DNA of 64,000 bases, taken from positions 19,592,001-19,656,000 of the forward strand of contig CP158635.1 in the NCBI GenBank assembly GCA_050273025.1, in the 5' to 3' direction. Shown here in pieces: positions 34,043 to 64,000 of the stretch. The notes beneath the pieces were generated by a model. The model made no database searches. It was not told the DNA's origin and saw only the letters and a program-made list of their open reading frames with translations. A program made the translations under genes and the position numbers. This DNA is from Cenococcum geophilum. Lineage: Eukaryota. Each line of letters starts with the position of its first letter. The stretch's first letter is position 1.

Positions 34043-34477
34043 TGCTGTGTGATTGTTGTAATATTGCGGATATGGCGTGTTGGGGTCTGGTTCGATTTGG
34101 AGGTTTCCGTGAAATATAGGGATTTTCGAGAATGTAATTTGAGCTCGGAGACGGGGATGCAAGTGGAAAACGCGACGGATGCGAATAGGTTAAGGTGTTG
34201 AGGCTGACGAGTGCATATTCAGAGAGCTTGAAAACGGAGAAAACGTAGGCCAGGATTCCTGCTGTTGACAATGGCGTTGTCTCACATACTGATTATTGCG
34301 GTCTCTTTGACGGTTGCGGTGACTCGTCGGAGGTGGTTGGGGGAAGGCTGGGAGAATACGTGGACACGTGCACAGCTGGCCACGCTAGTATGTAATGGGA
34401 AGAAATTATAATTTACCCCGCCACCAAAAAATCCGAGCAGCAACTTTGCCCGCCAAAATCCATATAGCTGCGCGAAA

Positions 34478-35570
34478 ATGGCTCCATCTGCGACTACGCC
34501 GGAAGAAAATACTATGCTAGCTGCGGATCCGCAAGTTATATCCCTCCGTGAAGTTCTCACATCCGAAACTGAACCCCTTGCACGCCGTTTCCGCGCCCTC
34601 TTCTCCCTCAAACACCTTGCGTCCCTTTCCCCTCCAACATTTCAAACTCTCCTCGCCATCGATGCTATCGCCGCGGCCTTCAACTCCCCATCCGCATTGT
34701 TAAAGCATGAACTTGCATACTGCCTAGGCCAGTCTCGGAATGCTGCCTCGGTGCCGTATTTGCGGCGTGTATTAGAGGACAAAGCGGAAGATGCGATGTG
34801 CAGGCATGAAGCCGCAGAGGCGTTAGGAGCTCTCGGAGATCAGGGGAGTCTAGAGTTATTAAGAGAGCTAAGAGATGATGGAAGAGAAGTGGATGTTGTA
34901 AGAGAGACTTGTGAGATCGCAGTGGAGAGGATCGAGTGGGAGCACGGAGTGAAGAGGGCGGATGAGAAATTGAAGAAGAGGTATGAACTCATCAGGATTA
35001 ATTTCAATTTCGAAACGACAGATCCGATGAAGCGAAGAGAAACTCATATAACATAGTGATTTTGCATCTATAGACCCTGCACCCCCTCTACCGCAAGCTT
35101 CGCAAACACCCTCAATAACTGAGTTGCAAAAGACATTATTGGACACGTCCTTGCCTCTTTTTCAGCGATATAGGGCCATGTTCGCCCTCCGTGACCTCTC
35201 GTCCCCTCCAGACCTTCCCACCGCCATTCCAGCAGTTCAAGCTCTGGCACGAGGGCTTAGCGATCCGTCTACTCTGTTCCGCCACGAAATTGCATTCGTT
35301 TTTGGCCAGTTATCTCATCCGGCATCAATACTAAGTTTGGTAGAGACGCTAAGCAACACAAAGGAAGCAAGTATGGTACGACACGAGGCCGCGGAGGCTC
35401 TCGGAAGCCTCGGAGACGAGGACGGTGTTGAGGATATATTAAAGAAGTTCTTGGATGATCCGGAACAGGTTGTTAGGGATAGTGTGATTGTGGCTCTGGA
35501 TATGGCCGAGTTTGAAAAGAATGGGGAGGTTGAATATGCGATTGTGCCAGAGGTAGGGAAACCAATCTAG
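34478..35570 (+). CDS. LIA1: Deoxyhypusine hydroxylase (DOHH)
   Basis: HEAT-like repeats with four HE motifs ([43 protein letters not shown]). Intron 34981-35056 is followed by the [10 protein letters not shown] linker. Confidence 0.96.
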
Positions 35571-35706: not shown

Positions 35707-36206
35707 TCAGTTGTTGGTATTCCACCTGTTTATATATTAGTTATAGAAGTACTCAAATACAACACTAAAACATACTTATGGCCACACTCGCAGGTGTAGA
35801 AGACGGTGGTGCCTTCATCAGCACTACGTAATTGCTGAGTGTAAAAGCGAACCTTTTCCCTTCCGCACTTCTCGCAAGTCTGATTGATTGTGGCATCCGT
35901 CTGCATGTCCGCCTCGGTGAGCGTTTGCACTTCAGATTTCTTTGCGCGCAAGGATGATGGGAATGCGGTTGGCTTTGAACGCGTGACTACAACTTTGGAA
36001 GAAGCGTCTAATTGGTTATCAGCAGCTGAACACATGCAGGTGAAGCAAGATGCGAGAAGAGGCAACAAAATGAAGTGAAAAATGTCGAGACCTTTACATG
36101 AGGCGCCACAGACATCACAGATCAGTATGGCTTTCCCATTACCGGAGCTGCCATCGAGGAGATTCCCACAGTCAGTGCAGAATACCAGCGAGCCAATTGC
36201 GGACAT
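35707..36206 (-). CDS. RPA12: RNA polymerase I subunit A12
   Basis: N-terminal FCTDCGNLL...CDVC ribbon and C-terminal TFIIS-like CEKCG...QLRSADEGTTVFYTCECG. Introns at 36008-36091 and 35726-35775, with the final exon encoding (K)WNTNN*. Confidence 0.95.
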
Positions 36207-36546
36207 GGCTTCTGGAGATTTATTGAATAATCGGCGGAAAGTGAACGTTAGCGGAGATTGACAGCATTTCCGCTAGTGGGGCGGAAGAAAGGGGCAGAAT
36301 ACTTGACGTTCGGTTCACCGTGCCTTCCTAGAACAGGAGCCAAACGCATCCCTGCATTGTCTATCAGAATGTCTGGAAAATTATACGAACCTCTGTAAAC
36401 TCTGTCGCGGCCGTCATGAAAGTGGGATCATCATATGAGGGTACCATTATCTGTCCGAGTAGCGCCCTCTTCTCCATCCCCCTCTGTCTCCAACTGGCCT
36501 TGGGGACCCTCCATCAACGCCGGTGACCCCCACCGCAAAGTCCACC

Positions 36547-39500
36547 ATGAACGGTGCAAATGGGGGCTGGCACATGAGCAATGGAAGGCCTTTACCCTTT
36601 CGTCCTCCAACTGTTGATGAGGCTCTGCAATATTCGCCTCTCAGCTCGATCGTTCCTTTCTCTCCCAGTGAGCAACCTTCTCCGCTTCGTACTTAGCTAT
36701 CTCGCAGCGACATATCGTTTCTAATAGTGCATGACACTGATTCTTATCAAGGTATCATTCCATTCCCCTCCGCTGGACCTCCGAGCTCCTCCTCAATCTT
36801 TACCACCCAAGAAGAGCGGCGTGCGGCAAGACGCGCCTTAGACTCTTTCAACACGGAAAGTAGCAACACTCATAGTACATCTGCCAGGCTACAAAAGACT
36901 CTACAAGATCTGCAACAACTTCTGAACGCAGAGGAGCTTACTCAGTTGTAAGGTTTTTATGCTTTATGAAATATTGGTTGGGGCAACAGAAGGCTGATAT
37001 TGTGTAGCAACTTTAAGAGCACCCCTCACTTGGCCAGCAACCCGAATTATCGAAATGTGCCTGTGTCTGTGAATGGAACTCCTAAAACCGCCAAAGAACC
37101 TCAGCTCGGCCAATTCGCCAAGATGATCCTGAACAACACAGATATTTCTTTCAGATGTAGGGCTTTTGTTCGATATATTCAGGTCAAATAACTGAATTTT
37201 CTTAGACCCTACGCCTGTTTCACCCACGAAACCCCCCCAGAAAAATGACCCTTCTAGCCGAACTCCTCAACAAGCACCTCCTAAAGTGCAACCTCAGGTT
37301 ATTATTCATAATGATACATCGTTCAAACAAAGTTCAGCAGTGCAATTCTCGCCCAACGTCAAACCGCCATACCGGCAATCTCCTGTTGAATCGTCGGTAG
37401 TCAGGCCCGCAGTCATAATTCCGGGGTTACCGTCCTCGTCGCAGCGTGAAGAATACGAAACTTTTCCTCACATTGACGCCCATGATGCCATTCCGAAGAA
37501 GCGTAAAAGAGAAGATATTGCTGCAGACAACGAGCCCTTGGCTCTTAGCTATGATCAGAGACAGAAAGCGGATGCCGCCGTAAATAACCTACGGGGTCTA
37601 CTTCGGGACATTTTTGAGGCGGAAGATCAATACCAACCGGATACCTCTGGATTCACCTCTTCAAATGCTGCAAATTTCTTCACCTCTAATCCTGTCGGAG
37701 AATCAGAGCGTCCAGTCCTGGTGCATTCCATTCAGACTCGCTTAGAGTCAGCGGTTCAGAAGGTTATCTCTGCTGGGAGAATAGCTATGATACCGGTGGA
37801 CCATTTAAGCCGAATGCAGAGGCTTTGCGAAAGCTCCATAACAGCAGTCAATGATTCTTCTCTTACCATTGGAGCTGAGTGGAGCGATAGCGACATAGAA
37901 GAGTGGTTAGCTCGCGTATCAGTAGCTGAAAATGGGCTTCAGGCTGCCAAGATTATGCTAAGGATTATGACAGCTGGCCGTGAGGAGAAGCAGATTTACT
38001 CAGAAGACCACCTACAAGCTGCCATAACTATCCTAAAACATGTGCTTCAAACATGCCTCGTTCCAATTGTGGAAGCGCGGAGTACAGACGGCGGATCCGA
38101 TATCTTTAAGATTGCTTCAGCCCAGAAAAAGCCTCTCACAACACTTTTACAAGTCTGTGGGAGGGTTCTGCGACTCTTGGGTGATCTTATCATTAAAGTT
38201 GATGTTGTGGACCATGCCATAACTTCTGTCGAGTACATATCGACAATGCTGATCTTTGTGGAAAATGCTCATAGTGAAAAAGATTCCGCGCTTGGCATTC
38301 AGAGATTTGAACTTGTACGGCGCATCGCTATGGACGTTTTGGCGAAGATATTTGCTCGCTACGAGGATCAAAGGACGTTCATCTTTGATGAAATCTTAAC
38401 TTCGTTGGAGAAATTGCCAGTTACTCGTCAGAGCGCAAGACAATTCAAGATGATTAATGGGAAGCCTATCCAGTTAGTATCAGCATTGCTTATGCGACTG
38501 ATACAAACAAGCGCCACGAGGTCCATCCAAGATAAGAAAAAGACTAGTCAAGATTTGGTTGAGGGGGATGAAGACGACAGCACGTCCGAGGTGGACGGAC
38601 ACACTCCATCGAAACATACGCGCCATGCCAATAACGGCCACGACGATTCGTTACAAAGCTTATCCGACATTGTGAAGCGCCTCCATGATGATACGCTGAA
38701 GAACGCCTCCTACCTCGTGAACTTCATGGTTCAGCGAGCACTTGGGGCGACTAAAACAGGAGACCAGCCTTACCGCAACTTACTGGATATATTTATCGAG
38801 GATTTTTTAAGCGTGCTTGGTTCTCCGGATTGGCCTGCTGCAGAAATACTTCTTCGGACTCTTCTATCAGTCATGACGCATCTAGTTCAAAGTGACAAGT
38901 TTGCAGTACCGGCAAAAAACATGGCACTGGATCTCATGGGGCTCATGGGCTCCGGAATATCAGATTTAAAAATGCACGTCAGGCAAACCACCCGAACTCT
39001 AGACACGAGTCAATCTGAGCTGTCTGCTCGATTGGTTCGATTATCGGAAGATGTCTTAGAGGATAAGGTGAATGAAACAGATATTCTGGATTTTGAGGGA
39101 CCGTACCGGGTTGTGCTGGAGTATCTACAGTTGTTGGCGCGAGACGACGATTCTCAATTGCAGAGTGCGCAAGGATGTCATATTACGCTATGGGCTAAAC
39201 ATGTCTGCAATCTCCTTGAGGTGGACGATGGCACCGATGATTATGAGCGCTCTATGCTAAATTCCCTGGAGAAACGGCTCAAGCACATGGTCTTGAATCC
39301 TAAGTGGCTGGCAGCCGAATAGTGAGTGACTGTGTACCATTTCGAAACGTATCTGCTAACTTTTCTGGAAGTGAATTTGAACCTATCTCTACTGTACAAG
39401 GCCGTCTCGCCGCGGGCATTACCACACTTCGTATGCCATTTTGCAAGTACCTGACCAGTATTTTCAGGATGCTTCTAAGCTCGATGACAAGTAATCATGC

Positions 39501-42270
39501 CACGATGAAGAGTCGTAGCTTGAAGAGCATCGTCCAACTTCTTGAAAAAGATCCTGATATCCTCGATGATGACGTAGTTCAACGAATCATTAGATTAACA
39601 TATGATTCTTCTCCATTAGTCAGAGACTCTGCTCTCATGATTCTCGGCAAATGTCTTACCTGGAAACCTGATGTTGAACGTAAAAATTTGGACAAAATAA
39701 TTTCTCGGGCTGGTGATGCAGCAATTGGCGTTCGCAAGCGGGCCATGAAGATTCTCAAAGAAATATACCTGCGTAACGAGGGAAAGGATGTGAAGTCCGC
39801 AATCGCAGATGCCTTGTTACAACGAGTTAAGGATCTCGACGAGAGCGTTGCAGAGTTGGCCCGGCAGACATTCGAAGAAATCTGGATATCGCCATTCCAT
39901 GATTCAACCAAAGCCGACCCAGTCAAAACAAAGCTGGCCCTTCGAAATCAAGTCTCTCTTATCGTCCGAACTGTGCAACGTGGCGAAAGTGTGCTCTCTG
40001 TTCTTGAGGCCTTATTACAAAATGTTCTTTCGAACGCCTCAAAGCACGCAGCGACGAATTTCAAAGTTTGCAAAGACATGGTTGCAGTAATGTTCGACGG
40101 GGTTATCGACAGTGACGAACTACCGGACAGGCCTGCTCAAGCACACATCTTGCAAACCTTAACTATTTTCGCGAAAGCGAACCCGAAGTTATTTACAGGA
40201 GAACAGCTTGAGTCATTGCAACCGTATACGCAAAATATTGAACAGTCCGATAACCTACTGGTTTATCGTTCCGTTCTCGTCATTTTCCGCCACGTTTTCC
40301 CTTCACTTACTTCCTACCAGACTAGCTTCTTGAGCACTGTTCAGGGTGCCTTGATGAAATACATAGCTAAGATGGGCAAGATGGAGCTTAATGAGATTGC
40401 TCAATGTCTCTGGATTATCAACGGGGTCCTTAAAGACACAGCTGAACGCTTGGTTCGCCTTGCATGCTCGGTAATCTCAGGAATCGACAAGGAAAAAACC
40501 AAGAATCCCATGGATGACGCGACAATCAAGAAAATAGTTAGGTACTTGACGATCCTGGGCTATTTTGGGAAGTCCTGTGACTTTGAGAGCCACGTAGACT
40601 TATTTAGAGCGAAAATGCCTGGGTGGAAAGGCACAACTGTTGCAGGCCTTATTGTCGACACCATCTGCCCCTTCACGCGACAGAAACACCCCCACATGCT
40701 ACGAGAACAGGCCTTTGAGAGCCTTGGGATGATGTGTCAAAGCTGGCCTAAGCAATTTCTTAGATCCGATGTTACCACAGCTTTCGATCTCGTGTTCGCC
40801 AACAACGATGTACGGCTGGAACGCATTGCACTATCACAATTCAGCGGGTTCTTCGCACTTGAAGAGAAGCGGTCTGAAACAGGTGCTGAAATTGCCGTTG
40901 GTGAAGGCGCAGTTCATGGAACTGAACGACTAGGAATTTCTCTGGTTGCCAATGACAATGATGGAGTGTCAACATACATCGCCCAACGCTTCCTGATACA
41001 CATCGTCCGCATTGCTTTGGGTACACCAGATGAGCTTGCGTTGACAGCAACTCAGATCATCGTAAGCATCAATCGCCAGGGTTTGGTCCATCCAAAGGAA
41101 TGCGGCCCAGTTCTCATCGCCCTTGAGACATCTCCAGACCCCACGATCTCGAAAATTGCCTTCCAGGAACATCGAAGTCTTCATCACAAGCATGAAACTA
41201 TGTTTGAAAAGGAGTACATGAAGGCTGTGTCTCAAGCATTCGACTACCAACGAGATGTTCTGCATGACACCCATGGTGCGACTACTCAGCCTTTCACATC
41301 AAAGCTGCATCTGCTCTTTGAGGTGTTGAAAACAGGAAATGGCAAAGTCCGGAAGAAGTTTCTTTCTAACTTGTGTGAACGCATAAACTTTGAGCTTCCA
41401 AAGCTTAGTAGCAAAGATGACCCACCATCAAGCCTTCTGTATGCTCGCTTCTGTGTGCAAAACATCGCATTCTTTGATTATGCTCGCGTAGATGAGATTC
41501 TGCATCTCGTATCATGTTTAGAGAAGGTCGTCACTGGGACAGGGACCGTCGTCGCGCATGCTATTGAGACCGAGATACTTGGAATTCGCCTGGACCCAGA
41601 GCCACACTTGAGTCAGCAAGTGCCTTCAACATCTACTCTTGGTAACCAGGCTGTTGTCCTTCCGAGCACTGAATCAGACATCGTACGACCTGAACCTTCT
41701 ATTAGAAATACGGTGGATGAAGCTCAGCTCCGCCACCTCACTATCGCAACTATGATTCTGACCATGATTTGGGAAACACGGACATTCCTTCGCCGTCAGT
41801 GGGGCTTGCATAAGCAGCGCGAGGGTAAGGCAAATTCTAAAACAACTATTAAAGACCTGAACAGGGCTCCTACTAAAGCCCCTGGTGTCACGGGTGACAA
41901 GTATTGGGAGAGAATCTCAGAAATAATGTCCGCGCTCAGCAGTCCGGATACTATGACAGCGCAATGCAAGACTTTCGCAGAGCTGCTTGCTGTGGATAAC
42001 GAGCTTAAAATTGCTTCCGAAGACGATGAGGAAGCAGAGTTGACCAGAGCAGCTGCCGGTTATGAGACTCCTAACGATGATGAAAACGGAGGTGAGAACG
42101 TACCACTCAGTGGAGGAGCCAGAGGGAGAAAGAGGAAAGGATCGATGAGCGCCGCGGGCACACCGAAGAAGGCGAGGAAAACAGGAACTGGGAAGCCTCG
42201 TGTTCGACCCAGAAAGAACCGGAGCGGTTCTAGCGTGACGCCTGAGGGTGATGACGGAGGCTGGAACTGA
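36547..42270 (+). CDS. SCC2: Cohesin loader subunit Scc2/Mis4/NIPBL
   Basis: N-terminal TVDEALQYSP, cohesin-HEAT motifs (DSSPLVRD, DAAIGVRKRAMK, SPDWPAAE) and Nipped-B C-terminal QGLVHPKECGPVLIALETS. Introns at ~36668-36751, 36948-37007, 37157-37205 and 39322-39371 restore one frame. Confidence 0.95.
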
Positions 42271-43400: not shown

Positions 43401-43957
43401 TGCTCGAGTGTTCAAAGAGAAGACCTTGAAGACTGTGGAAGCCGTTAGACCGGCAAGTGCGGCGGGTGGTTGCTGGAGGATCAGCCAGCTAAGGTTCGGT
43501 GCATTGAAGATCGCTAGCATAGAAAATGTGATCACTGAATCCTTGCTGTTCCCAGTGGCAATGTTTTGATTGTTAAAAAAAATGTCCGCAGGAGCCGTTC
43601 AGACAAACTAAATTGACAAGGCTTCAGAACCATTTTTGGTGCTATAGTTGCGAGATCTGTATTAGCATTCCTAAATAATATGGATGAGTTTTGAATAAGC
43701 TGCTTCCAGGCTTGATGAACTTTAGTGCCAGACGACATGGGGAAGCGTGCACGGACTTGAATTTCCGCAGATTCCTCCCAAAAAGCGTCATCATACTACT
43801 CAGCTCCGCTACGATAGTGTCGCCCTAAATTTACCATGTCCTACCTCGAATTGCAGTAGTCCCCCTCTCCAGGCCTCCTGCCAATGCAGCTGCGGCCTTG
43901 AACTCGAAACCCAGCATACCCAGACGGAGTCGTCCTTTGGATTCTCCTTTATGCACA

Positions 43958-46128
43958 ATGTCGACATCCCCAGAGCCTCTCCGTAGACCACAGGAAGCCT
44001 CCTCCCAAAGTACAGACGATGCTTCGACACACTTAACCCCATCATCGGAGTCAGACGATGACGATGGATTGACGATGGTTGGAGACAGCTACACCGGGCA
44101 AAGCTTTCGCATGAAAAGTCTATCCTCGACCAGCAGAGAAAGAGTTAGAAAAGGCAATACTGCGGAGGGCCCAAAAAAATACGATGGGGAATATGAAGGA
44201 GGCGAAGATGAAAGTACACAGTTTCTGGAGGAATCCCGCCGGCTATCGCACAGCTCGTCGGTCCAGACCTTTGAGTTGTATACACCAGACGAAGATCGTT
44301 CAGTGTTGAAGAAGCTTGATAGGAAACTGGTGTTGTTCATGGCCTTATTATATCTGCTCAGCTTTCTAGATCGGTCGAGTAAGTGGTTTTTTAGCTTTTA
44401 CGTTCGTGGATTTGCTTTATAACAACCATGATTGGGATTGAATCCTCGATGGTTGGCAGATTGACAGGGGCTTGACAGAGCTGACAAAACAATAGACATT
44501 GGGAATGCTAGAATCGCTGGTCTGGAAAAGGACCTTAACTTGAGTTCACGGCAGTATGAGTGGCTGTTGACCGCTTTCTACATCACTTATATCGTTTTTG
44601 AATGGATGACATTGATGTATGACCTTTTCACATCCCTGCATCATCCCGTCATGTACGAAAATATTGCTGTATTACAGCTGCGTGTAGATCTCGGGTCATG
44701 GCCCTCTATTTGGCTGTTTGCATATGGCACTGAACTACCTACTGACCGCTCCCAAGGTATCGAATTATACCTCCTCATATCTATATATCCCTATGCGTTT
44801 TATCTTGGGGACTGATAGCATCGCTTCAGTCAGTGACGACATCTTTTGGATCCCTATTAATATTAAGAGCCCTTCTTGGTGTCAGCGAGGCAGCCTTCGG
44901 ACCCGGAGTTCCGTTCTACTTATCGTTCTTCTTCCGCCGCAACGAGCTCGCATTTAGAACTGGTTTGTTCATCTCTGCGGCTCCACTAGCTACATCCTTC
45001 GCCAGCAGTCTTGCTTGGCTCATCACTAAGCTTGGTCAAGACGGACCTCTTGCACCGTGGCGGCTTTTACTACTTGTCGAAGGCTTTCCTAGTGTGATTG
45101 TTGCGGCCTGGGCCTGGGAGTTCATCCCGGATAGTCCTGGCACGGCATGCTTCCTAAGCCCGAGACTAAGGGATGTTGCCGTGATGAGACTCAGCCAAGA
45201 AAATGAGGTATATGACGGGGATAACATGGAGAAAAATGAGTTTTCGGCGGAGAAGAAGATGGGCGTTAATAAACGGGAGGTTTTCCAGACGCTCATGGAT
45301 CCTAAGTGTTATCTCACAGCCGTAAGTATCCCTCATCAACGTTGGGATCATAAAATCAACCACAACCTTTCGATTTCAGCACGTCATTGCGTTAATTTAC
45401 GGGCTGACATTTCAAATAGCTCATGTTCTTCAGTTGCAACGTAGCATTCAGCTCACTGCCTGTATTCCTCCCAACCATAATCAGGGAGTACGTCCTCAAA
45501 CCCCAGGTTATATGAACAGTTTACTAAGTCTCTTCTCAGCATGGGTCACACAGCCCTCTATTCTCAGGCCCTCTCCGCACCCCCTTATATATTCTCTTTT
45601 GCTGTCGTCCTCCTAACTGCGTACCTGTCCGATCGTCTCCAAACTCGCAGCACGTTCATTATCTTCCATGCTATCCTAGGCGCAAGCGGTTACTCTCTTA
45701 TTGCTCTTGCAGGTTTTCGACGTTGGGATCATGTGTGGCGATACCTCGGAATCTACCCTGCCGCCGCAGGGTTCTTCTCTGCCATTACTATTATCATCAC
45801 TTGGACCATTAACAACCAGGAATCGGACTCGAAAAAGGGAACTGGCATGGCCATGCTGAACATTATTGGCCAGTGTGGTCCATTGGTTGGTACGAGACTA
45901 TATCCGGATACGGATAAGCCGTACTACGTACGAGGCATGTCGATTTGTGCGCTGTTCATGCTCGCTGTTGCGGGTTTGGCGTTTCTCCTAAGGATTGTAT
46001 TGAAGAGGGCGAATGGCTGGACTAGAGATAGCAGAAATAAAGAGGGAAGCAACCAAGAGGACGGTGTGCCTCTCGTGAGCGGAGGAAAGGTCAAGAGGGA
46101 GAAGAAAGCATTCTATTTCATGTTATAG
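43958..46128 (+). CDS. MFS transporter, anion:cation symporter/allantoate-permease-like family
   Basis: KKLDRKLV..MALLYLLSFLDRS(N)IGNARIAGL, RALLGVSEAAFGPG, WRLLLLVEGFP and YLSDRLQTR. Approximate introns at 44379-44495, 44617-44756, 45322-45419 and 45488-45539. Confidence 0.92.
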
Positions 46129-46434
46129 CACATATCTTCCTGCAAAATAGAAAACTCCCTGTATGATTATTATATATATTGTTCCACTCCAGGCTCATAA
46201 CATTTCGTTTGTTGTGGACCAGATCATTGCGCCGCCGGAGTCCGAATTCGGCCTGATAAGCGGTATTTGATGACGTTTCCGCCGAGAACGGATTCTTTCT
46301 ACCGCCATGCTTGTAGAATAGCCTATCTTATCGCCCATCGACGACATACACCAGTCAATCCGGTTCTAATTACCGTGTTCATATTTTCCCCTTTCCGAAA
46401 GTCACGTGAAAGCACCTGAACCTGATCCTCACAG

Positions 46435-46470
46435 TTATCTCATAAATCAGACGTCTGATTTATGAGATAA
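46435..46470. mobile_element. Perfect 36-bp palindrome flanked by an 8-bp direct repeat (minimal TIR-only insertion)
   Basis: TTATCTCATAAATCAGAC-GTCTGATTTATGAGATAA, with CCTCACAG at 46427-46434 and 46471-46478. Confidence 0.75.
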
Positions 46471-46623
46471 CCTCACAGCAAAAAAGCCCTAGATAGAAAA
46501 AATACGAGGAATCATGAATATACCCTTTCACCCTTCATACTGAGAGAAGCTGTATATCTCACATAGTCAGTCAATATACAATGCTCCGCCTCTTTAAAAG
46601 TAGTAGTTTTATGTATATAGTGG

Positions 46624-47767
46624 TTATCTCAGTAAGCGACTCAGACGGCAAAGGCAAACTGAAGGCGCACTCACTAATACTAAAGTATCACTAGTCTCCA
46701 TCCTAAAAACCGCCACTTTCTTTTAACCAATCAGCTATCTACCGACCTTAAGTTTGCCCTGCCGTCTGAGGGCCTATGGTGCGAGCTTTAGTGAGGCTCG
46801 ACTTTAATTTTCGCAATTTTGTATAAGAGACACTCTCTCCCATATATTTAACTCCTTAACAATACCTTTTTAACCTAATAAGCTAATAAGTTAAATTAGA
46901 CCAGTCTCCTCTATAATCGATTAGATTTTTATTAAAAAATAAATCTGTTAACTAGGTAAAGATTTAGGTAGATTTTGCGATATTTTGTAACAAAATCGCG
47001 CCTAGGCGAGGCTCTAGCAAGACAGCATTAAAATCACCTTTTTCACTGCCGTATCTCAACCCTTTTATAACGTCTAGTTATTATAAAAATACTACAAGGT
47101 AGGAGCTCTTTAGCTGCTCTATCTATTGCATTAAATAACGACATTGTAGCTATATTATATAAAATATTAGATATGGGTAGTCGGTCGCATTTTATCTAAA
47201 ATCATTAAAATACACCTTTTTTACTGCCGTATCTCGACCCTTTTATAACGTCTAGTTATTATAAAAATACTATAAGGTAAGAGCTCTTTAGCTTCTCTAT
47301 CTATTGCATTAAATAACGACGTTGTGGCTATATTATATAAAATATTAGATATAGGCAGTCGGTCGCATTTTATCTAAAACTCGTCGCTTTAAGTCGACGA
47401 GTCGGCACAATATGTTGATTTGATATTTTTCTACCTATAATTTTAACAACTTACTTTTATACTATAGGGTTTTTATATAAATATTCTTAAAAAGTAGCTT
47501 TAGTTATATAATCGATTAGATTTTTAAAAATACGTTATTTAGGGTAGAGGTAGGGCATTAAAAAAGGTAAAAAAAGATTTTAGTCTTGAATCGACCCTCA
47601 TATATTTTCGCACTAAAGGCCCTCAGACGGCAACCGAGACAGCATTGTTAAGTAATCCTAACTAGCCCAAATTCTATCACACTAGTAAGGGTCTGGTAAA
47701 GCTATGCTACTTAAGTACTAGCGAGATTTACTGTCTTGGTTGCCGGCTGAGTCGCTTACTGAGATAA
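46624..47767. mobile_element. Non-autonomous TIR element (1,144 bp) with 8-bp TSD, superfamily unassigned
   Basis: TIR TTATCTCAGTAAGCGACTCAG(A/C)CGGCAA at both ends and TSD TATAGTGG (46616-46623 and 47768-47775). The interior is AT-rich, RIP-like and without ORFs. Confidence 0.9.
47026..47379. repeat. ~177-bp tandem duplication inside the TIR element
   Basis: Copies at 47026-47201 and 47203-47379 are nearly identical, differing mostly by C/T and G/A transitions. Confidence 0.92.
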
Positions 47768-48114
47768 TATAGTGGTGTTCTTTGGGACGCTTTGACCGGG
47801 TCTTGGACAAGACGGGAGCTCCAAACGTAGCACTAGCGCCACGGCCATCACATGCACCTCTCTTCCTCTAGCCACCGCAATTCTCATCCTTTTGGCTTCG
47901 GGTTCTTGAGATTCTACCTATCCACCTATTATGTTCCAAGGACTAAAGCACATGGGTGAGGTTGCAAAAAGCTTGTTTGCTGATGAGTGACGTCAATTCT
48001 CGCACGCCTGCATGTCGCACGACTGTTCTGGAGCATCATGGAATGAAAAGAAGTTGATCAGAAACATTACCACTAATTTCAAGGAGGCTGTGATCCCTTG
48101 AAAAGGAAGTTGAA

Positions 48115-51100
48115 ATGGATCATACAAAGCGACAGTCCGATATGAGTGAGCGTGGGAGTTTTGAGCGACCATCTTCAGGCACATCTAAGGCTGAACAGCT
48201 AGAAAAACGTTCAGACAAGAGCCAAAATGCTGACAACCACTCGGAGGATTCCACTTTGCGAGAAGACCATGAGGTCTTCAGCAATGACCCGCCCGTGAAT
48301 GATTACAAACGCGAAGTTGAATCGGAGAAAGAACCTGCAGCACTCCGAGACACAGAACACCTGGAATTTGAAGGTGATGAGGAAGAGCCAGCTATACCGC
48401 AATGTTTCCAACGGTCTACCAGCCCCGCCGTCATGCAAAGAAACAAGGGAGCTGCATATGAGAAAGTTGGTGAAGAAGGTATAAATAAGATGCACAAATT
48501 CTCCCTCTATGAGACCAGCACTCGGTTTTACCTCGTCGGCGGAGACGTTATGGATAGGCATTTCCGGGTACTTAAAATTGACCGCACAGCGCCTCCTGGA
48601 CATTTGAATATCTTCGAGGATGACATTGTGTATGACAAGAGAGAGATGAACCAGCTTCTAAATGCCATCGATGATGGAAACAAGGGAACCGGCGGTATGA
48701 AGCTAAAGTGTAGCACCTGGGGACTTCTCGGCTTCATCAGATTTACCGAAGCGTACTACATGCTTCTCATCACCAAAAGAGCTCAAGTAGCGATGATAGG
48801 TGGGCATTACATATATCAAATCGATGGTACAGAGTTAGTACCACTCACCACGGGTTCTACATCTCGATTTCAAAGAGACCGCAACCCGGAAGAAGTAAGA
48901 TTTCTCAGCATTCTGAACAACCTTGATCTGAGCCGGTCATTTTACTTCAGTTATTCGTATAATATTACTCGTAGCCTTCAGCAGAACATTATCCGAGAAC
49001 GGGAAGCTCTGTGCCAAGGATTTCGTTATTCAAACTACGACTTCAATGACATGTTTGTTTGGAACAACTACCTTTTGGAACCAGCCCGAGCTGCGCTGAA
49101 AAGTACTTACGATTGGTGTCTTCCAATTATTCATGGTTTCATTCACCAATCTTGTATGTGTTCGTAATTTTCCTGCGCCTAAAAATACTGATCATGAATT
49201 AGCGCTGAATGTGTTTGGTCGACGAGTATACATTACAATCATTGCCCGGCGATCAAGATTCTTTGCCGGCGCACGCTTCTTAAAACGTGGTGCAAACGAC
49301 TTAGTGAGCAACTACCACTTTCTACACCTTCGAATTTATTTAATAAGTCTTAGGGCTACGTCGCCAATGATGTCGAAACAGAACAGATCGTTTCCGAACT
49401 ACTCAATACTTCATTTCATGCCCCCGGACCTCGACTATACGCCAACCCCACATACACATCTTATCTTCAGCATCGCGGAAGTATCCCCTTGTACTGGACG
49501 CAGGATAATACAGGAGTAACTCCAAAGCCAGACATCGATCGTATGTATGAGTTTCCACGAGTAATGAATTGCTTCATTAACCTCTGTCCAGTAAATCTTG
49601 TAGACCCTTTTTACAGTGCCGCAGCACTTCACTTCGATAATTTATTTGAGCGATATGGCGCGCCCGTTTATGTGCTTAACTTGATCAAGGTGAATTGGCC
49701 TATGGCGCAATAACGCATAGCCTTGCTAATGAGTTATAGTCGCGCGAGCGTACTCCACGGGAGTCAAAGCTTTTACACGAGTATCAAAACGCCATAAAAT
49801 ATCTTAATCAATCTTTGCCGACTGACAAGAAGATATTGTACGAGGCATTCGATATGAGCAGGGCCTCTAAAACGTGAGAGAAAGCATGCCTTGTGAATCT
49901 AGGTATCATTCCTAACATTTTGCAGGCGAGGTCAAGATGTGATAGGGACTCTTGAGTCAATCGCGGAGAAAGTTCTCCAAAAGACAGGATTCTTTCACAA
50001 TGGAGATAGCAATTTTAATTCGCCGCAGATTCAAAACGGTGTTGCAAGGACAAATTGCATAGACTGTCTGGACAGAACAAATGCTGCTCAGTTCGTCATT
50101 GGTAAGCGTGCTCTGGGCCGGCAGCTTCAAGCAATTGGGGTCCTCGCCGGGAATACGGTTGAATACGACACTGACGCGGTGAATACCCTCACCCACATGT
50201 AAGTTCCATTCTGGAATTAATCTACTTAGATGCTGATTTGGGATAGGTTTCACGACCATGGAGATACCATCGCAATCCAGTATGGTGGATCACACCTTGT
50301 CAATACAATGTCAACATATAGGAAGATCAATCATTGGCAAAGCCACTCACGAGACATGGTAGAGAGCTTCAAACGTTACTATCACAACTCCTTTCTCGAC
50401 TCTCAGCGACAAGAAGCTTACAACCTCTTCCTTGGAAACTATATATTCGCTCAAGGTCAGCCCATGCTGTGGGACCTAACAACTGACTACTACCTGCACC
50501 ACGCCGATCCACGCGCATGGCTTAACAAGGGCCGTCGAGATTATATTAATTGGTATACGCCGTCCTTTCTCGAACCACGTGCTCTGCCAGCGTCCACGGA
50601 GCCGAACGTTGAATTATTGAGGAAAGGCGTTGGCCTCTTTGATGATTACTGGCTGGAATACTACCGCCCACTGGCTATCTCCTCCTTTCTAAAGATTTTC
50701 TCCTTTCGCCTCAATTCCCCTGCCCGCTACTTGCCAGACAGGTCCCTCCAGTCACGCGACTTCGACCTCTCCCCCTTCTGTCCACGCAAGCAGCCCCATG
50801 AGAACGAATCACCAGAGAAAAAACCCCTTCGAAAGGGTGTCACAATCGTCGATCCCAGCGAGACAGACTCCCAACGCCTTACCATCGCTGGCCGCCGTAA
50901 CCAAGCACGCCTCGCGCCTCCTGCAACAAACGAAAGTAACTCACCCATCAAACAAAGCATCTTACGTGACCCTCACTTTAAAACCCAAATACTCCCATCC
51001 ACAAGCTCAATGAGCATGTCTCTCTCAAACTCCAACTCTTCATTTAAACCCGCGGACAAGAGTCTTATGACCCAATGGACACTCGATCAGTTCTACACCA

Positions 51101-51516: not shown

Positions 51517-52643
51517 ATATGAGTTTGCATGCTATCTTTTCATCGACCAGTTTTGTAGGCTATCAGCAGTTTGGACTCGGTGTTGTGTATGGCTAGCGTG
51601 GGCATAGAGCATGGTTAGGTGATTCTCAGTGTTGGGTATTGATATTCTTTGCTAGAGATAATGCAACTACTCAATAATCTAGAGGTATATATTCCTCCTA
51701 TACTAAGAATGTACGAGTAGCGCACATCACGATAAGCCTTCATGTGTTTTTACTCAAGTCAGGGTGATAGCCATCAAAGCTAACTGCAGCTTCCGTCTAG
51801 TGCTTAAGCAACATTGTAAGCAGTACTTCAAACATATCCTGCCTCATGTTAAAGAGCACGGTCACTCTTATAAGTGCATGCCTATCCTCTTCTGACTGAC
51901 TAATAGCCTGACCTGTTGATGCATCACTCCATTTTGAGGTATCTTCATGCCAAAAATTCATAATTTTATCCGCCCTCCCGTCCCAGCATCGGGCCTTCTG
52001 TTCTCCGTAATATAGCCATGAGCGACGGGATTTAATCCATGGCTCGCATTTTCTGGAAGTGGGAACGGTGGTTTTCGTAGCTGTTCTGTAAAAAATACTG
52101 GATGTCTGATAGCACTGTCATACCGATGTTGCATGAGATCAGTGACCCGAGACTGCAACATAGGCGCTTGAGGCATAGGGCCGAATGGAGGCATCGCCTC
52201 TAACTGATTCCTATGTTGACGTGCACCGGGAATTTCGGTTGGTTGCCGTATTTCTTGGGGAGGTTTGAAGCTACCGGACAGCTGCTGTTGAGAGCGAGTC
52301 TGTTGGTGGAGGTAGCTTGGTCCTGGCTGCGGCGGGTACTGCGGCGACTATTAATCATTAACTGTAATTAGAAGGGATATAGGTACGAGAAATATACCTT
52401 TGGTCGCGACGGCTGCAACACTGGAAGCATGCCAGGACGAGTTGGAAATGTTCATATAAGCTTTCGTGACGGTTGCTCGAAATGCTTCATGCCTCCACAT
52501 GCCGAGGTCCATTGCCCGCGAGACGTCATTAAAATTGCTGCTGCTACGGAAGACCATACCTTCTAAAGACGCCAATGGGAGCAGGGGTATACAGAAATAT
52601 ATATTCGAAGTTTGTATGACTCAAGCTCAACTAACAAAACGAG

Positions 52644-54834
52644 ATGCAAGGAACAGCTGCACTTTTCTTCGCTGCTTCAAAATGTTGCAGTTTCAATGCT
52701 TCTTATAGATTACTTAGCACGCCCATAATACAAATCTCCAACGGCACCTTTTACCGCCAGCATCCCGCATTGCGACCTCCGCCGGGGCAGGACGCTCCTC
52801 CAAATCTACCATTGTTCCCTCAATTGACCCTGTCTCTCCCTTCTTTCTCGTCACCGAACCAGCATTGGGCTATCCTAAGCCCTTCTTCGACCGTGAGGAC
52901 TGCATTCCTCCAAATTCTCCGTGGCCAGTTGCTGTGCTTTCCGCCCACGGCTCGATCATACCCGTACCTCCTCTCTGACAAGATCGCCGCCAAGAATCCC
53001 AAATTGCGCTTTCCCGAGAGAGCTATAGAATATGTTGGCTTCGACGTGGAGAGGAAAGCGTTTGGGGGTGCATACCTAAGCGCTCGGTATGAGAGCCGTG
53101 TAGAAGAGACGGATTTCTCGTTGGCCCAATACTTGACTGGGGTTACCGGACTTAATGTTGGAGAGGAGTATGTGAAAGAGCGCCTGCCGGACCAGGATGC
53201 AATGCTCCAGGTTGTAAAGGATCTTGGATTGGAGCCATACTTCCACAAACCTGTTAGCACTCTGAGTAATGGGCAGTCGAGACGCGCAAGGATTGGGAAG
53301 GCTTTGCTGAGCAAGCCCGAGATGCTACTATTGGATGCACCATTTAGTAAGATCGCCTTATTATTAGTTCGGTAATTGACTAACTGTACTAGTCGGTCTT
53401 GATCCGTTTGTGTCGAAGCATATCTCCCAAGTCTTGCATGGGCTAGCTGAAGCTAATGCACCCCGCGTGGTGTTATCGTTAAGGCCTCAAGATGTTATAC
53501 CAGGATGGATAACCCATGTTGTCTATGCAGGCGAGGACGGCAAAGTTGACGCCCTAGGGCCAAAAGGAGAGGTCTTTCAGTACCTTAAAGAACAGTATGA
53601 GTCAGTAGAGTCAACGTTAAGGAATTCTAAAAGAACAGAAGGGGTTAGCGCAGGTGAACACGCCGAACTGGATCCAAAATTAGTGGAAATTAGAAAAGTA
53701 GGACGTCACATGTCCGAGAGAGGAGACTTCGATTTGGCATCTCAAGTCGATGAGTCTACCACTTCTCATAGTTCTGCGCTCAGCCGGGATGCGTATACGA
53801 AAATTGATGAGTCTCGAGTACCTATCGGCGACCCCCTCGTTGAGATGGAAGGAATCAGAATCAAGTACGGGACCAACTCTGTCCTTGGGAACTGGCAGCA
53901 AGACATAGAGGGCTCCGTAAAGGACGGTCTGTGGTGGAATATTCACCGAGGGCAGCGGTGGGGTATATTCGGAGCAAACGGTAGAGTCAAACAGGTACGA
54001 GAACAGGCAAATCATGCTAATCTCTGAATAGGGTCCGGAAAGACCACGCTCCTATCCCTAATCACATCTGATCACCCACAAACATATTCTGCTCCAGTGC
54101 GTATCTTTCAACGCTCACGATTGCCATCGCCAGGTGTTCCCGGAATCTCAATCTTTGACATCCAATCTCGAATGGGCCACTCATCTCCAGAAGTTCACGC
54201 GCTCTTTCCAAAGGATCTCAGTGTTAGACGGACACTAGAATCTGCTTGGGCAGATACTCCATTGACCAAACCTGCGCTTAACTCTGAGGCAACTCAACGA
54301 GTTGAGGCGTGTCTGCGCTGGTTTAGGGCAGAATTAAATCCGCTCTTCGATAACGCTGAAGCACTAAATAACACAGAGTCTTCTTCCCTTGGGTGGACCT
54401 CACACATCATATTTGGAGAGCTCTCGTTTTCGGCTCAACGTGTCGCGCTCTTCCTCCGCGCCACCATTCGCAACCCTGATATCGTAATACTAGACGAGGC
54501 ATTTAGCGGCATGGACGACCTTGTCCGGGACAAATGCTTATTATTTCTAAGCAGAGGCGAGAGCATGACGCTGCATTATCATGATACTGGCCCCAGGCCT
54601 ACAGAGAATGAGCTCTCTCGTCAAGGCAAAGTGAGCGTTCCAGGCCTCCAGGATCACCAGGCGTTGTTATGCGTTAGTCACAGTCACCAGGAAGTCCCAG
54701 GCTGTATAAGAGAATGGATATGTTTGCCTGAGCCTGGAGCGGGGCCGCCAAGATTTGGGCGTCTGGATGGGCCCGTAGAGTTGAGCTATGAGCGCTGGAA
54801 TAAGATTTGGAATTGGCCTACTGGAAAGCCGTAG
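52644..54834 (+). CDS. Soluble two-NBD ABC ATPase, ModF/YDR061W-like
   Basis: NBD1 has signature LSNGQSRRARI and Walker B LLLLDAPF. NBD2 has Walker A GANG-SGKTT (across intron ~53981-54031), LSFSAQR, IVILDEAFSGMD and VSH. Another intron lies at ~53348-53391. No transmembrane domain. Confidence 0.88.
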
Positions 54835-56818: not shown

Positions 56819-57006
56819 TCTATACTTTTAGGTGTAGGTGTTCGAATTTTCAAACTCCTGCCAAGCCAGCTTTTGATTGGTTAGAAAAACCCGCCAAGCT
56901 AGCTTCTGGTTGGTTAGAGAAAAAGTCGCGGGCGGTATCTACCTGCAGAATACACGTGACGAACATTAAAATATTTAAGATCTTACTATCAAAAAATCAA
57001 CCTCTT

Positions 57007-59769
57007 CAATGGAAGAGGTGGAACGGAAGATGTTTGCGGCAAAGCCTTGGAAAGCGCCAGGGGACGACGGCCTACCAGCGATGGTGTGGAGGCAGATATG
57101 GCCGGTAATAAAAGACAGGGTCCTGCTCCTCTTTCAGACCTCACTAGACGAGGGCAACCTTCCCAACCAATGGAGAAATGCCAAGATTATACCGCTTAAG
57201 AAGCCAAATAAAGGAGACTATACGAAGGCAAGGGCATGGAGGCCTATCTCTCTGCTGTCTACGTTAGGCAAGGTGCTAAAGTCTATAGTCGCCGAGAGAA
57301 TATCGCACGCAGCAGAGACCTTTGGACTACTACCTACAAATTACTTTAGGGCAAGGAAGAAGCGCTCCACTAAACAGGCGCTGCTACTACTGCAAGAACA
57401 TATCTATAACGCGTGGAGGTCTAAGAAGGTACTCAGCCTTATTAGCTTTAATATAAAGGGTGCATACAACGGAGTATATAAAGAGAGGCTACTACAAAGG
57501 CTCATAGCAAGAGGTATACCGCCAGTGCTAGTGCGGTGGATTAATACATTCTACTCTAATCGTACGGCGACTATCTTAGTTAACGGCCATACCTCTAACT
57601 AGTAATAGTTACTACAAGCAGGACTACTACAAGGATTGCCGCTCTCGCTAATACTATTCCTCTTTTTTAACGCCGATCTAGTCTAGCACCGGCTTAATAT
57701 AAATAGAGGCTTAATAGCGTTCGTGGACGATTATAATGCATAAATTATAGAACCATCAGTAGCAGCAAACTGCGAAGGCATTTAGGCTATTATTAATAGA
57801 GCAATAAACTAGGAGAAACAAAGCGGCGCAACGTTTAAAGGTAAAAAGACTATACTAGTGTACTTTATAAGAAACGCGGACCGGACCAATACTACCCCAT
57901 TTATAATTAAAGGAAAAACAGTTATACTAGGGCATACAGCTAAGATCCTAGGGGTAGTTATAGATGCGGAGCTTTGGTATAAGCAATATATCGCAAAAGC
58001 AGCCACCAAGGGCCTTATCACAGCTATAGCACTAAAGAGACTCCAGATAGTATCCCCTTTAACCACAAGACAACTATTTAGGGCAACGGTAGCGCTAGTG
58101 GTGGACTACGCCTTAAACATCTAGATATACGCCTATAGGGGTTCCACTATAGCCGCAATAAATAGGGTACAAAAAATTGGAGCGTAGGCAATTATAGGAA
58201 CTTTCCGTATAGTAGCTACGGTTATTAGGGAGGCCAAAGTAAGCATACGGTTAGTACGCGAGCGGCATTTAAAGAGGGCCACTAAGTTATAGGTTAACCT
58301 TAACACGCTATATAAGACGAACCCGCTCTTAAGGCTCCGCATAAAGGTGCTCCAGAGGTTCACGTCCCTACTACAGAAGATAGCCTATATATATTAATAT
58401 ATACTAATAGATAAGATAGAGGTCATTTAGCCCTATATAGTACTACTATAGGAGGACTAACTGCCTATAAGCATTAACCTAGATAAAGATAGGGCAACTA
58501 AAGCCGCTAACTCCACCTAAGGCATATAGATCGCAACAAGCTCGTCTAGGAGGAGAGGCATAGTAGGGATGGGAGGTATTGTCTATAACACCCTTAGTAA
58601 TACGCCAAATAGGGAAGCTATTATATACTCAATTATACTAAAACTAAGAGTAGAACAGAACCTATACATAGCTAAACTAGCGGCAATATTAATGGTAATA
58701 AGGTGCTTACTGCTAGATCTATAGAAGAGATAGATTACTATATTCACTAGTAATTAAGCAGCACTACTAGCGATTAGCTAACCTAAGCAACAATCTGGCT
58801 AAATAAGTATTGCATAGATCTATAACATAGCCCGCATATTAAGGCAAAGAAGTAACCGTTTTCTTATTATATGGGTCCCTTAAGGGGAGTTTAAACTAGG
58901 CAAGAAGGTAAAAGTAGTAGTACGGCGAGCTACTATATAAGGACGCCTACTGTAAGGACAACAATACTAGGCTAAGGCTATAATAATAAACACCGCAAGA
59001 ACAAAACAGTAGGGTAGGAAAACACTACTGGAAGGAGTAGGAAGGTATTTAAGAAAAATGGACACAGTACTACTAGGTAAATATACCCGTAGGCTATATA
59101 ACTCCCTTAAGCGAAAAGAGGTAAATATATTAGCCTAGTTACGGATAGAAATAATATAACTTAATGGGTATCTACACCGCATTAGAGCGGCAGAATTAGA
59201 TTAATATAATTACGGATAAGTAAGAGAAATAGTTAAACACTTTCTCTTTAGGTGTATAAAATGGATATTATATTAAGAGCAAATGCTGCAGCAAATAGAT
59301 ATAAAAAGAGGCAGCTTATCCTTCTATCTTAGGGGGAAGGCGTTAAGTAACTCTAAATAGTAGATACCAAACGTAGACGCGGTCCGAGCAATAGTAAAAT
59401 ACGCAATAGCTACTAGATAACTTAAGGCAGAATTAAATTAATAACCCGTCTACCATAGTCAGAAACTCCCCCCCCTTCTCTACGCTTTAACTAACCTATA
59501 CTATACACCCTCGTGCCACCAGTAGATCTCGCTTTAATTACTAAAGATAGAACACTAAATACTTAAAGGAATAGCCCCCCAAGACCACCTACTACTAACC
59601 ACCTATAAGATCTCATAAAATAAGGCATAAGTAACACTAGGGAATACTAAATAAGGCATATATACGGGCTTATACAAGAATATGGCGAGACTAAAGGAAG
59701 CGTAATTATATAATATAGTACTAGTGCCCTTTAGGCTTAGTGCCTCCGGGCGGAATAAACTTCATTATC
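57007..59769 (+). mobile_element. 5'-truncated Tad1-like LINE (RT + RNase H + C-terminal zinc finger)
   Basis: KAPGDDGLP, WRPISLLSTLGK, NIKGAYN, GLLQGLPLS and FVDD (~57720), then an RNase H-like region at ~58530-58950 and ...RE.VKHFLFRC at ~59220. The TSD is ~12 bp: AATCAACCTCTT (56995-57006) and AATTAACCTCTT (59770-59781). Confidence 0.92.
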
Positions 59770-60402: not shown

Positions 60403-60728
60403 CTTCCTTACGGCAAGCTCCCTCTTAGCGGCAAGCTCCCTCTTGGCAAGCTCTAACTACGGCTACACTACTACCTGTTTTAGCTATTAATTAGGAGCGG
60501 ATTAAGAAGTTTAGGAGTATACTATAGGCTAAATATATAGAGACGTGTAGTTGTTGCAAGGAGTAGTAGTTCCAAATAGGCCTAGCTACAGAGGGTAATA
60601 ATATAGGTGTATGTAAAGCCTATATTAAGGACGCCGATAGTCTTAAGGATCTAACCCTCCCCCCCCTATTTAGTAAAAGTAATGGGCTTAATCTGGGGCC
60701 TGTTCCTAGCTTCCTGCCTATACTTACC

Positions 60729-63700: not shown

Positions 63701-63857
63701 AAGACTTTATATAGCATTATATTAATTCGTTAATTTAATTCCAATTTGAGCCTTCCAAATCAACTCAATTCTTTTAATTCGCCTAATATAGAACGCCAAG
63801 CAATTCAATTTAATTCAAACCTCTTTAGAAGACTTGAAAGGTTTACTAGCACCCCTG
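60729..63857 (+). mobile_element. Complete hAT transposon (3,129 bp), RIPed
   Basis: TIRs TAGGGGTGCCGGTAAA.../...TTTACTAGCACCCCTG and 8-bp TSD TACTTACC (60721-60728 and 63858-63865). Transposase motifs: BED finger, SMDIWTS, ILDN..NNNT, CAG.IINL, NTR*NST and dimerisation domain YPRL...PERVF. Confidence 0.95.
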
Positions 63858-64000
63858 TACTTACCGCGGTAGAGGAGCTTCTAATTACGCGCGTATACGT
63901 TTATCTACAAGTTATACGTATACGCGGCCAGCAACATCGCTATACTGGCCATATCTGCTGCTTTGGCTAGAATACACTAAAGACTTAGAGGCAGCTACTA

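Follow-up and report, generated by a model that had tools for sequence, protein, structure and literature searches.

A probable non-autonomous DNA transposon with a two-site, hairpin-forming end architecture and a 36-bp neighbouring remnant in Cenococcum geophilum

Target-site duplications of 8 bp are a hallmark of hAT transposons, which were recorded throughout fungi in one survey (33,376 transposase-bearing copies; PMC5751038, Table 1) and, together with Mutator-like elements (MULEs), are described there as dominating fungal genomes. Among the hATs of Saccharomycetaceae, Rover1, mRover1 and Roamer make such duplications; the terminal inverted repeats of Roamer, at 28 bp, were the longest known for a hAT at that time, the final six bases of the Rover1 terminal repeat recur in forward and reverse orientation across its 200-bp subterminal regions, and mRover1 is a non-coding derivative with pronounced DNA secondary structure (PMC4316626). 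Here we describe a 1,144-bp element at positions 46624-47767 of a 64,000-nt stretch of Cenococcum geophilum contig CP158635.1 (positions 19,592,001 to 19,656,000; hereafter the window, in which all coordinates are counted). It resembles these hATs in its 8-bp duplication, in the 28-bp length of its terminal repeats, in the repetition of the terminal repeat's inner part, forward and reverse, over roughly the last 200 bp of each end, and in being a non-coding sequence with pronounced secondary structure. Unlike Rover and Roamer, which begin with CAG, CAT or TAG, it has termini starting TTATC; in place of the up to 16 scattered hexamers of Rover1 it carries an 11-12-bp word, two copies per end, at a fixed span of 130/131 bp and within extended stems; and among the open reading frames (ORFs) of the 64-kb window no hAT transposase could be linked to it. 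We read it, with a probability of about 0.75, as a non-autonomous class II (cut-and-paste, terminal-inverted-repeat) transposon that was mobilised in trans and has since been altered by mutation resembling repeat-induced point mutation (RIP).

The terminal inverted repeats are 28 nt each and 27/28 complementary (96%), and a perfect 8-bp duplication, TATAGTGG, is present at both element ends, as stated by the original prediction, which had been made from the sequence alone and had described terminal repeats of about 28 bp with an 8-bp duplication. A 9-bp reading of the duplication (ATATAGTGG) needs a right end one base shorter than the left; the 8-bp reading was preferred because the ends then stay symmetric and because a second element, described below, also has 8 bp. 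A 3-bp TTA/TAA duplication of the PIF type and a TA duplication of the Tc1 type were rejected, since either leaves the 8-bp direct repeats unexplained. The outer 21 nt of the terminus have exactly two matches in the 64 kb, where 0.01 would be expected, and none of 100 shuffles gave two. Scanning the whole window for outermost inverted exact 10-mers with flanking direct repeats yielded 27 candidates, and the repeat reached at least 5 bp in three of them: the 1,144-bp element, a 36-bp palindrome located 153 bp upstream of it, and a low-complexity pair at 60777. The first eight terminal bases, TTATCTCA, occur six times in the window, and four of these six occurrences are the termini of the element and of the palindrome. 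RIP was rejected as the source of this odd terminus: RIP is stochastic, and because all four termini read TTATCTCA identically, the terminus is original.

Inside the terminal repeats, each end of the element holds a stem-loop module. The motif TCAGMCGGCA has four matches in the window, all within the element and in the order + - + -, against a chance expectation of 0.07; four matches were found in none of 100 shuffles. The inner 12 bp of the left terminal repeat (46640-46651) constitute the first copy, CTCAGACGGCAA. Extended by one base to CTCAGMCGGCA, the shared word begins 16 bp from the terminus at both ends, and its inverted pair bounds left and right modules of 131 and 130 bp, respectively. 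The module lengths are nearly equal although both the loops (80 versus 88 nt) and the stems (25 nt on the left, 21 nt on the right) differ; the right arms are 90% complementary according to the inverted-repeat search. As single-stranded DNA, the 150-nt ends fold with -23.4 kcal/mol (left; z -3.96) and -25.9 kcal/mol (right; z -3.77), and 0/200 shuffles were as stable in either case. The original prediction had listed a stem-loop at each end, a perfect 16-bp inverted repeat between the inner arms (46760-46775 / 47617-47632), TCAG(A/C)CGGCA four times in alternating orientation, and a paired inverted motif at each end. All were recovered, with some refinement: the right arms were redrawn to 47622-47642 / 47731-47751, folding exceeded that of shuffled sequences, the inner repeat extends to 42 nt at 79%, the four motif copies stand against the 0.07 expected, and the paired motif is 11-12 bp long with conserved spacing (131/130-bp modules, 16 bp from the end).

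When the first 167 bp of the element were aligned to the reverse complement of its last 167 bp, identical bases stood in 97 of the 171 columns, unevenly distributed: the outer repeat (27/28) and the inner block (26/32) agreed well, the middle in 44/111 columns. Conservation between the two ends is thus limited to the outer 28 bp and the inner block, and the similarity of the loops, equalled in 41 of 500 shuffles, is not significant. Past the shared word, the left stem extends a further 13-14 bp and the right stem a further 9-10 bp; these extensions differ in sequence between the ends, and each pairs within its own end with one mismatch. Because the diverged stems each still pair within their own end, the hairpin or inverted-repeat geometry itself appears to have been maintained, and not just a protein-binding word. 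Stems of this extent, preserved separately at each end, suggest a role for the hairpin or looped geometry as such, possibly in end assembly, as a cruciform or single-stranded DNA, or as a hairpin RNA.

Two foldback miniature elements of about 130-160 bp that flanked unrelated AT-rich DNA and moved together once would form a composite of similar appearance. Each module is indeed an inverted repeat in itself, with near-equal lengths of 131 and 130 bp, and the interior differs from the ends in composition (29% versus 44-48% G+C). Against such a composite, both inner arms are devoid of the 16-bp terminal segment that starts with TTATCTCA, and they run into a block common to both sides (42 nt, 79%, with a 16-bp perfect core). 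Since the inner boundaries are homologous and symmetric, they indicate one ancestral end architecture rather than two independent insertions, and we consider the composite origin quite improbable.

The element has no coding capacity: the longest stop-to-stop ORF wholly within it is 50 amino acids (aa). A Pfam scan covered 15 ORFs, 31-50 aa long, that lie in the element or overlap it, and gave no match above the cut-off and one below it (E 0.068). No Rfam family was found above its gathering score, two matches with E of about 0.6 falling on the 36-bp palindrome, and a tRNA search of the window found none. The G+C content is 29% in the interior and 44-48% in the ends. The RIP-like indices of the element, 1.43 for TpA/ApT and 0.69 for (CpA+TpG)/(ApC+GpT), depart from the normal values of the flanks (0.70-0.78 and 1.22-1.23, respectively), and the two 178-bp copies of an internal tandem duplication differ by 10 transitions, 1 transversion and 2 one-base indels. 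The RIP-like composition suggests that the element was formerly multi-copy. Within the interior, a 28-nt unit, ACCTTTTT.ACTGCCGTATCTC.ACCCT, is found directly repeated at 47036-47063 and 47214-47241, in the tandem copies, and once inverted at 47541-47568 with 82-86% complementarity. It joins a motif-like TGCCGT to a terminus-like TATCTC and could be one more binding site, or else an internal end of older date.

The same data bear on the view that nothing here was ever mobile, the inverted repeats being chance or structural features of AT-rich intergenic DNA. This view is favoured by the fact that one full copy is seen and that it comes with neither a transposase nor an empty site for comparison. 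Opposed to this are the chance expectations of 0.01 for the 21-nt terminus pair and 0.07 for the motif, the presence of two separate perfect 8-bp duplications, each with a chance of about 1.5e-5 per end pair by simple arithmetic, and the restriction of RIP-like composition to the element. We give this explanation next to no credit.

Several results weigh against reading the element as a transposon mobilised in trans. Comparison of the element with the window by blastn revealed no other copy, the best outside matches being at most 19 nt with E of at least 0.74, and no autonomous partner was found in the window among 111 stop-free ORFs from its AT-rich regions. The domain scan of these ORFs gave only reverse transcriptase, integrase, DUF6570 and one hAT dimerisation domain, which is part of the TAGGGG-ended hAT described below. 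The RIP call, in turn, rests on composition and on the finding that 10 of the 11 substitutions between the tandem copies are transitions, not on a comparison between copies of the element. Searches of the window with RIP-tolerant degenerate terminal repeats (C or T; G or A) at 2-3 mismatches recovered only the four known termini. The 21-nt terminus had no exact match in bacterial and archaeal genomes, which says nothing on fungi, and a literature search with the terminus 12-mer, or with the 8-mers plus transposon terms, returned no relevant paper. With no autonomous or further copy found in the window, trans-mobilisation, the binding role of the motif and the superfamily are all inferences. 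The element is probably immobile now. It is non-coding, but with 1,144 bp and a single copy in the window it falls outside the miniature inverted-repeat transposable elements, which are homogeneous and of high copy number and for which a size under about 600 bp is given (PMC4316626). Positions 46538-46557 match the reverse complement of the left duplication plus terminus at 16 of 20 positions, including TACTGAGAGAA versus TACTGAGATAA. This segment was rejected as a third decayed end, about one such match being expected by chance in the region (arithmetic).

The 36-bp palindrome upstream provides a second insertion with the same terminus. It folds with -13 kcal/mol (z -8.9), and its ends are the same eight bases, TTATCTCA, as those of the large element, followed by TAA and then by TCAGAC, as at the start of the shared word; two indels separate it from the terminal repeat of the large element. 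It has a perfect 8-bp duplication of its own, CCTCACAG, in agreement with the earlier expectation that other copies should carry 8-bp duplications, and it thereby supports the claim of a DNA transposon making duplications of this length. According to the Repbase rule for non-autonomous DNA transposons, elements of one family have equal duplication lengths and terminal positions 1-11 that can be aligned with at most one mismatch. Both elements have 8-bp duplications and are identical at positions 1-8, while positions 9-11 contain two mismatches when ungapped or one 1-nt gap. Judged from its sequence, the palindrome probably represents a separate insertion, made by a sister subfamily within the same terminus family. 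It is most likely a remnant formed in situ and not a mobile unit, because a stiff duplex of 36 bp, far below the persistence length of DNA, could not bend enough for its two ends to meet.

A related element would have inserted, duplicated its 8-bp target, and then lost all but 18 nt per end. This could have happened through abortive gap repair or end-joining after excision, or through a transposase that cuts the two strands far apart, which would leave a set portion of the terminal repeat on each flank. Deletion derivatives of Ac, P, Tc1 and Mutator elements are attributed to abortive gap repair (PMC3814204). The remnant is like the gap-repair and microhomology derivatives reported there in keeping both termini and the duplication, and in a junction on 1-2 nt of self-complementary microhomology; at 36 bp it is far under the sizes reported for them and is itself very probably immobile, and that mechanism gives no reason to expect both ends to be kept at equal length. 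The remnant can also be parsed as 17 + CG + 17, with two overhangs of one length fused at a self-complementary tip. That as much was kept of one end as of the other slightly favours the long-stagger route, on the evidence of a single event.

P-element footprints typically retain about 14-18 bp of each end. In a P-like or other far-stagger family the palindrome would be a true excision footprint, in which the flanks kept fixed 3' overhangs of about 18-19 nt and were joined at their CG tips (17 + 2 + 17 = 36 bp). The remnant retains ends of equal length (18 + 18) centred on a self-complementary dinucleotide, and a stagger of fixed length would explain this more naturally than two independent gap-repair tracts, because annealing via the much longer inverted motifs further inside would have been possible. 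An 8-bp duplication, terminal repeats and separate subterminal inverted repeats are all present here, and this is the layout described for zebrafish Pdre2, in which the subterminal inverted repeat is 12 bp long and distant from the terminal one; Drosophila P transposase cleaves the ends with a stagger of 17 nt, close to the 18 nt per end of the remnant (PMC10983969). The element nevertheless differs from P and Pdre2 in its terminal sequence, which is not CAT... as in the CATACC of Pdre2 (PMC10983969), and its subterminal repeat is an inverted copy of the inner part of the terminal repeat and forms a hairpin with it. The P superfamily is barely recorded in fungi, with 11 transposase-bearing copies termed "single occurrences" and RepBase entries from Pucciniales and Allomyces only, in the survey (PMC5751038), and no THAP or GTP-binding transposase (PF12017, PF12596) is known for the element. 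Moreover, there is one remnant only, abortive gap repair gives the same product in any cut-and-paste family (PMC3814204), and the remnant ends, two indels away from those of the 1,144-bp element, have no link to excision of that element. A P-like affiliation is therefore unlikely. The same low standing applies to the bolder proposal that elements with TTATCTCA termini represent a cut-and-paste lineage unrecorded in Pezizomycotina, P-like or unclassified, with a stagger of about 18-19 nt, for which the palindrome would be a natural excision footprint that displays the cleavage geometry, and the paired, hairpin-forming 12-bp sites with their fixed 130-bp span would be required for end recognition.

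We regard hAT as the most probable superfamily, at somewhat less than even odds, on the grounds of prior frequencies, the 8-bp duplication and the reuse of the inner-repeat motif. The duplication is perfect in 2/2 insertions, and the terminal repeats, 28 bp with 27/28 complementary, reach the upper limit for hATs, whose repeats mostly stay below 20 bp and extend up to 28 bp. Subterminal repeats are reported to aid hAT end recognition; hATs have multiple short ones, and here one inverted extra copy of 11-12 bp was found per end. The occurrence of a typical hAT in the same window (60729-63857) also counts for this assignment. As the original prediction had it, this hAT has typical ends (TAGGGGTG.../CAGGGGTG..., starting TAGGGG and CAGGGG). 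It also has a perfect 8-bp duplication, TACTTACC (60721-60728 / 63858-63865), and positions 63247-63441 match the hAT dimerisation domain (E 4e-7), which hAT transposases combine with a BED finger (PF05699 for the dimerisation domain).

The preference for hAT is opposed by the termini in the first place, which start TTATC and not (C/T)A(G/A), or (C/T)A(G/A)NG in the longer form. All 18 displayed Rover and Roamer rows have a 5' start of CAG, CAT or TAG, one Rover4 row having a 3' terminal repeat that starts CAA, and TTATCTC is absent from this terminal-repeat table (PMC4316626, Table S4); the termini, as had been noted before, are thus unlike the typical hAT start both in the displayed rows and in the hAT of the window. 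An exception among hATs is Verticillium VdHAT3, for which ATTTG ends were reported and a duplication was not found (PMC3441728). A central TA in the duplication was called typical for one Verticillium hAT (PMC3441728), and neither TATAGTGG nor CCTCACAG contains it, a weak point with two sites only. The element has just four copies of a long 11-12-bp motif, as opposed to many short hexamers. Finally, hAT excision as studied involves hairpins formed on the flanking DNA and is not expected to leave 18 nt per end, so that under a hAT assignment the remnant needs a gap-repair explanation.

MULEs usually make target-site duplications of 9-11 bp, and exactly 8 bp were duplicated in both insertions. 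Under a Mutator-like origin, the composite ends of about 175 bp would be long imperfect terminal inverted repeats mobilised by a MULE transposase. The left 167 bp do align with the right reverse complement through conserved outer and inner blocks, like a partly decayed long repeat, but the middle of this supposed repeat is no more alike between the ends than shuffled sequences (41/500), and what the two ends share lies only in the outer 28 bp and the inner 32-42 bp. In the survey, MULEs occur throughout fungi (PMC5751038). Verticillium VdMULE1 has an 8-bp duplication and 86-bp terminal repeats, so one VdMULE shares the duplication length of both insertions here, and fungal MULEs such as Hop and VdMULE1-3, the latter with terminal repeats of 53-86 bp, have long end regions with subterminal repeats, like the element (PMC3441728). 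Unlike in these fungal MULEs, the conserved end parts of the element lie about 100 bp apart with unconserved sequence between them, and the GGNAA terminal consensus of Hop-like fungal MULEs is absent, the termini being TTATC (PMC3441728). A MULE is accordingly a doubtful candidate.

Taking the superfamilies together, hAT thus comes a little short of an even chance, a Mutator-like affiliation is a minor possibility, a P-like or other long-stagger family is a slighter one, and what remains falls to other or undescribed groups. Among the latter, Merlin, Zisupton (KDZ) and Novosib fit in length with their duplications of 8(-9) bp. In the fungal survey, Ascomycota have few P, Merlin or Zisupton elements or none at all, Merlin is listed as single occurrences in Dikarya, KDZ is given for Basidiomycota, Rhizophagus, Mucoromycotina and Allomyces, and Novosib was found only without a transposase (PMC5751038).

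Transposition of the element may be envisaged as follows. A DDE transposase encoded elsewhere in the genome would recognise the element ends. Each end would consist of a 16-bp terminal cleavage region starting with TTATCTCA and, inward of it, the 130/131-bp module bounded by two inverted CTCAGMCGGCA copies, which would be the likeliest sites for the DNA-binding domain of the transposase, two per end. Their role as binding sites is proposed by analogy. Integration would proceed via cuts staggered by 8 bp, because two independent perfect 8-bp duplications were found.

The element is intergenic, lying between a gene for a major-facilitator superfamily (MFS) transporter (last ORF ending at about 46125) and a gene for a SacI-domain phosphatase (first ATG at 48115), about 340 bp upstream of the latter ATG. 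The coordinates of all features are collected in Table 1. Ordinary housekeeping genes surround the element (28660-54831). The closest cohesin-loader protein sequences point to a Dothideomycete-like ascomycete as the host: the N-terminal half of Scc2 (37196-39319) had its best named match in Lepidopterella palustris (57%), and one other record reached 89%. By these Scc2 matches, the host lineage is poorly sampled. Positions 1-28000 form an AT-rich block of decayed long terminal repeat (LTR) retrotransposons (29-40% G+C, TpA/ApT 1.6-1.9), with a sharp border near 28 kb to the gene-rich part of 45-50% G+C. The region of 56-60 kb is a second RIP-like stretch; an open frame of 207 aa located there (56979-57599), just upstream of the hAT, encodes a reverse-transcriptase domain (E 3e-13). 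A 78-aa frame at 63734-63967 matches DUF6570 (E 3.5e-6, above cut-off) and spans the right end of the hAT and its flank.

Table 1. Coordinates of the 1,144-bp element's parts, the 36-bp remnant and other features of the window.
Feature	Position	Strand	Basis or remark
Left target-site duplication copy, TATAGTGG	46616..46623	.	Sequence read; same as 47768-47775
Left 28-bp terminal inverted repeat, begins TTATCTCA	46624..46651	+	Repeat search, 27/28
Left 131-bp stem-loop module; arms 46641-46665 / 46746-46769; 80-nt loop	46640..46770	+	Repeat search, folding
Motif copy 2	46760-46769	-	Motif search
Left inner conserved block; inverted repeat of 47591-47632; 16-bp perfect core 46760-46775	46760..46801	+	42 nt, 79%
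AT-rich non-coding interior, 29% G+C, RIP-like bias, contains tandem duplication	46802..47590	.	Indices 1.35 / 0.59
Tandem duplication, 2 x 178 bp, 94% identical	47026..47379	+	Tandem Repeats Finder (TRF) and repeat search
Right inner conserved block; holds motif copy 3	47591..47632	+	Repeat and motif search
Motif copy 3	47623-47632	+	Motif search
Right 130-bp stem-loop module; arms 47622-47642 / 47731-47751; 88-nt loop	47622..47751	+	Repeat search, folding
Motif copy 4, TCAGCCGGCA	47741-47750	-	Motif search
Right 28-bp terminal inverted repeat	47740..47767	-	Repeat search, 27/28
Right target-site duplication copy, TATAGTGG	47768..47775	.	Sequence read
Left duplication copy of 36-bp remnant, CCTCACAG	46427..46434	.	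Sequence read
36-bp perfect palindrome, two 18-nt termini (TTATCTCATAAATCAGAC and its reverse complement)	46435..46470	.	Sequence; 19+19 nt inverted repeat, 100%
Right duplication copy of 36-bp remnant, CCTCACAG	46471..46478	.	Sequence read
Tf2-type integrase SH3 fragment	9843-9992	-	Within 1-28000 block
Reverse-transcriptase fragments	23223-23669	-	Within 1-28000 block
Phosphoenolpyruvate (PEP)-mutase-like gene	28660-29190	-	
HEAT-repeat protein	34412-35567		
TFIIS-type zinc-ribbon RNA polymerase subunit	35733-36272	-	
Cohesin loader Scc2/Mis4, two exons	37196-42267		
MFS (major-facilitator) transporter	43829-46125		
SacI-domain phosphatase	48094-49710		
ABC-type ATPase	52635-54831		
Complete but RIP-mutated hAT; ends TAGGGGTGCCGGTAAA and CAGGGGTGCTAGTAAA, 3 mismatches	60729-63857		Duplication and domain

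The element is of a fairly ordinary kind apart from its two-site, hairpin-forming end architecture, which is unusually tidy, and its termini, which are not hAT-like. It should be annotated as a class II repeat, and so should its 36-bp neighbour, which repeat finders will miss. From its position, the element could affect the promoter of the SacI-domain gene. The TTATCTCA terminus, the candidate 12-bp binding word and the conserved end geometry offer handles by which the other family members, and with them the transposase, can be retrieved from the full genome. Should the enzyme prove to be an ordinary hAT transposase, the range of hAT termini would widen and a tidy two-site end architecture would be shown for the superfamily; otherwise the element would stand for a superfamily that is rare or new in Ascomycota, and the way it cuts would be preserved naturally in the 36-bp remnant.

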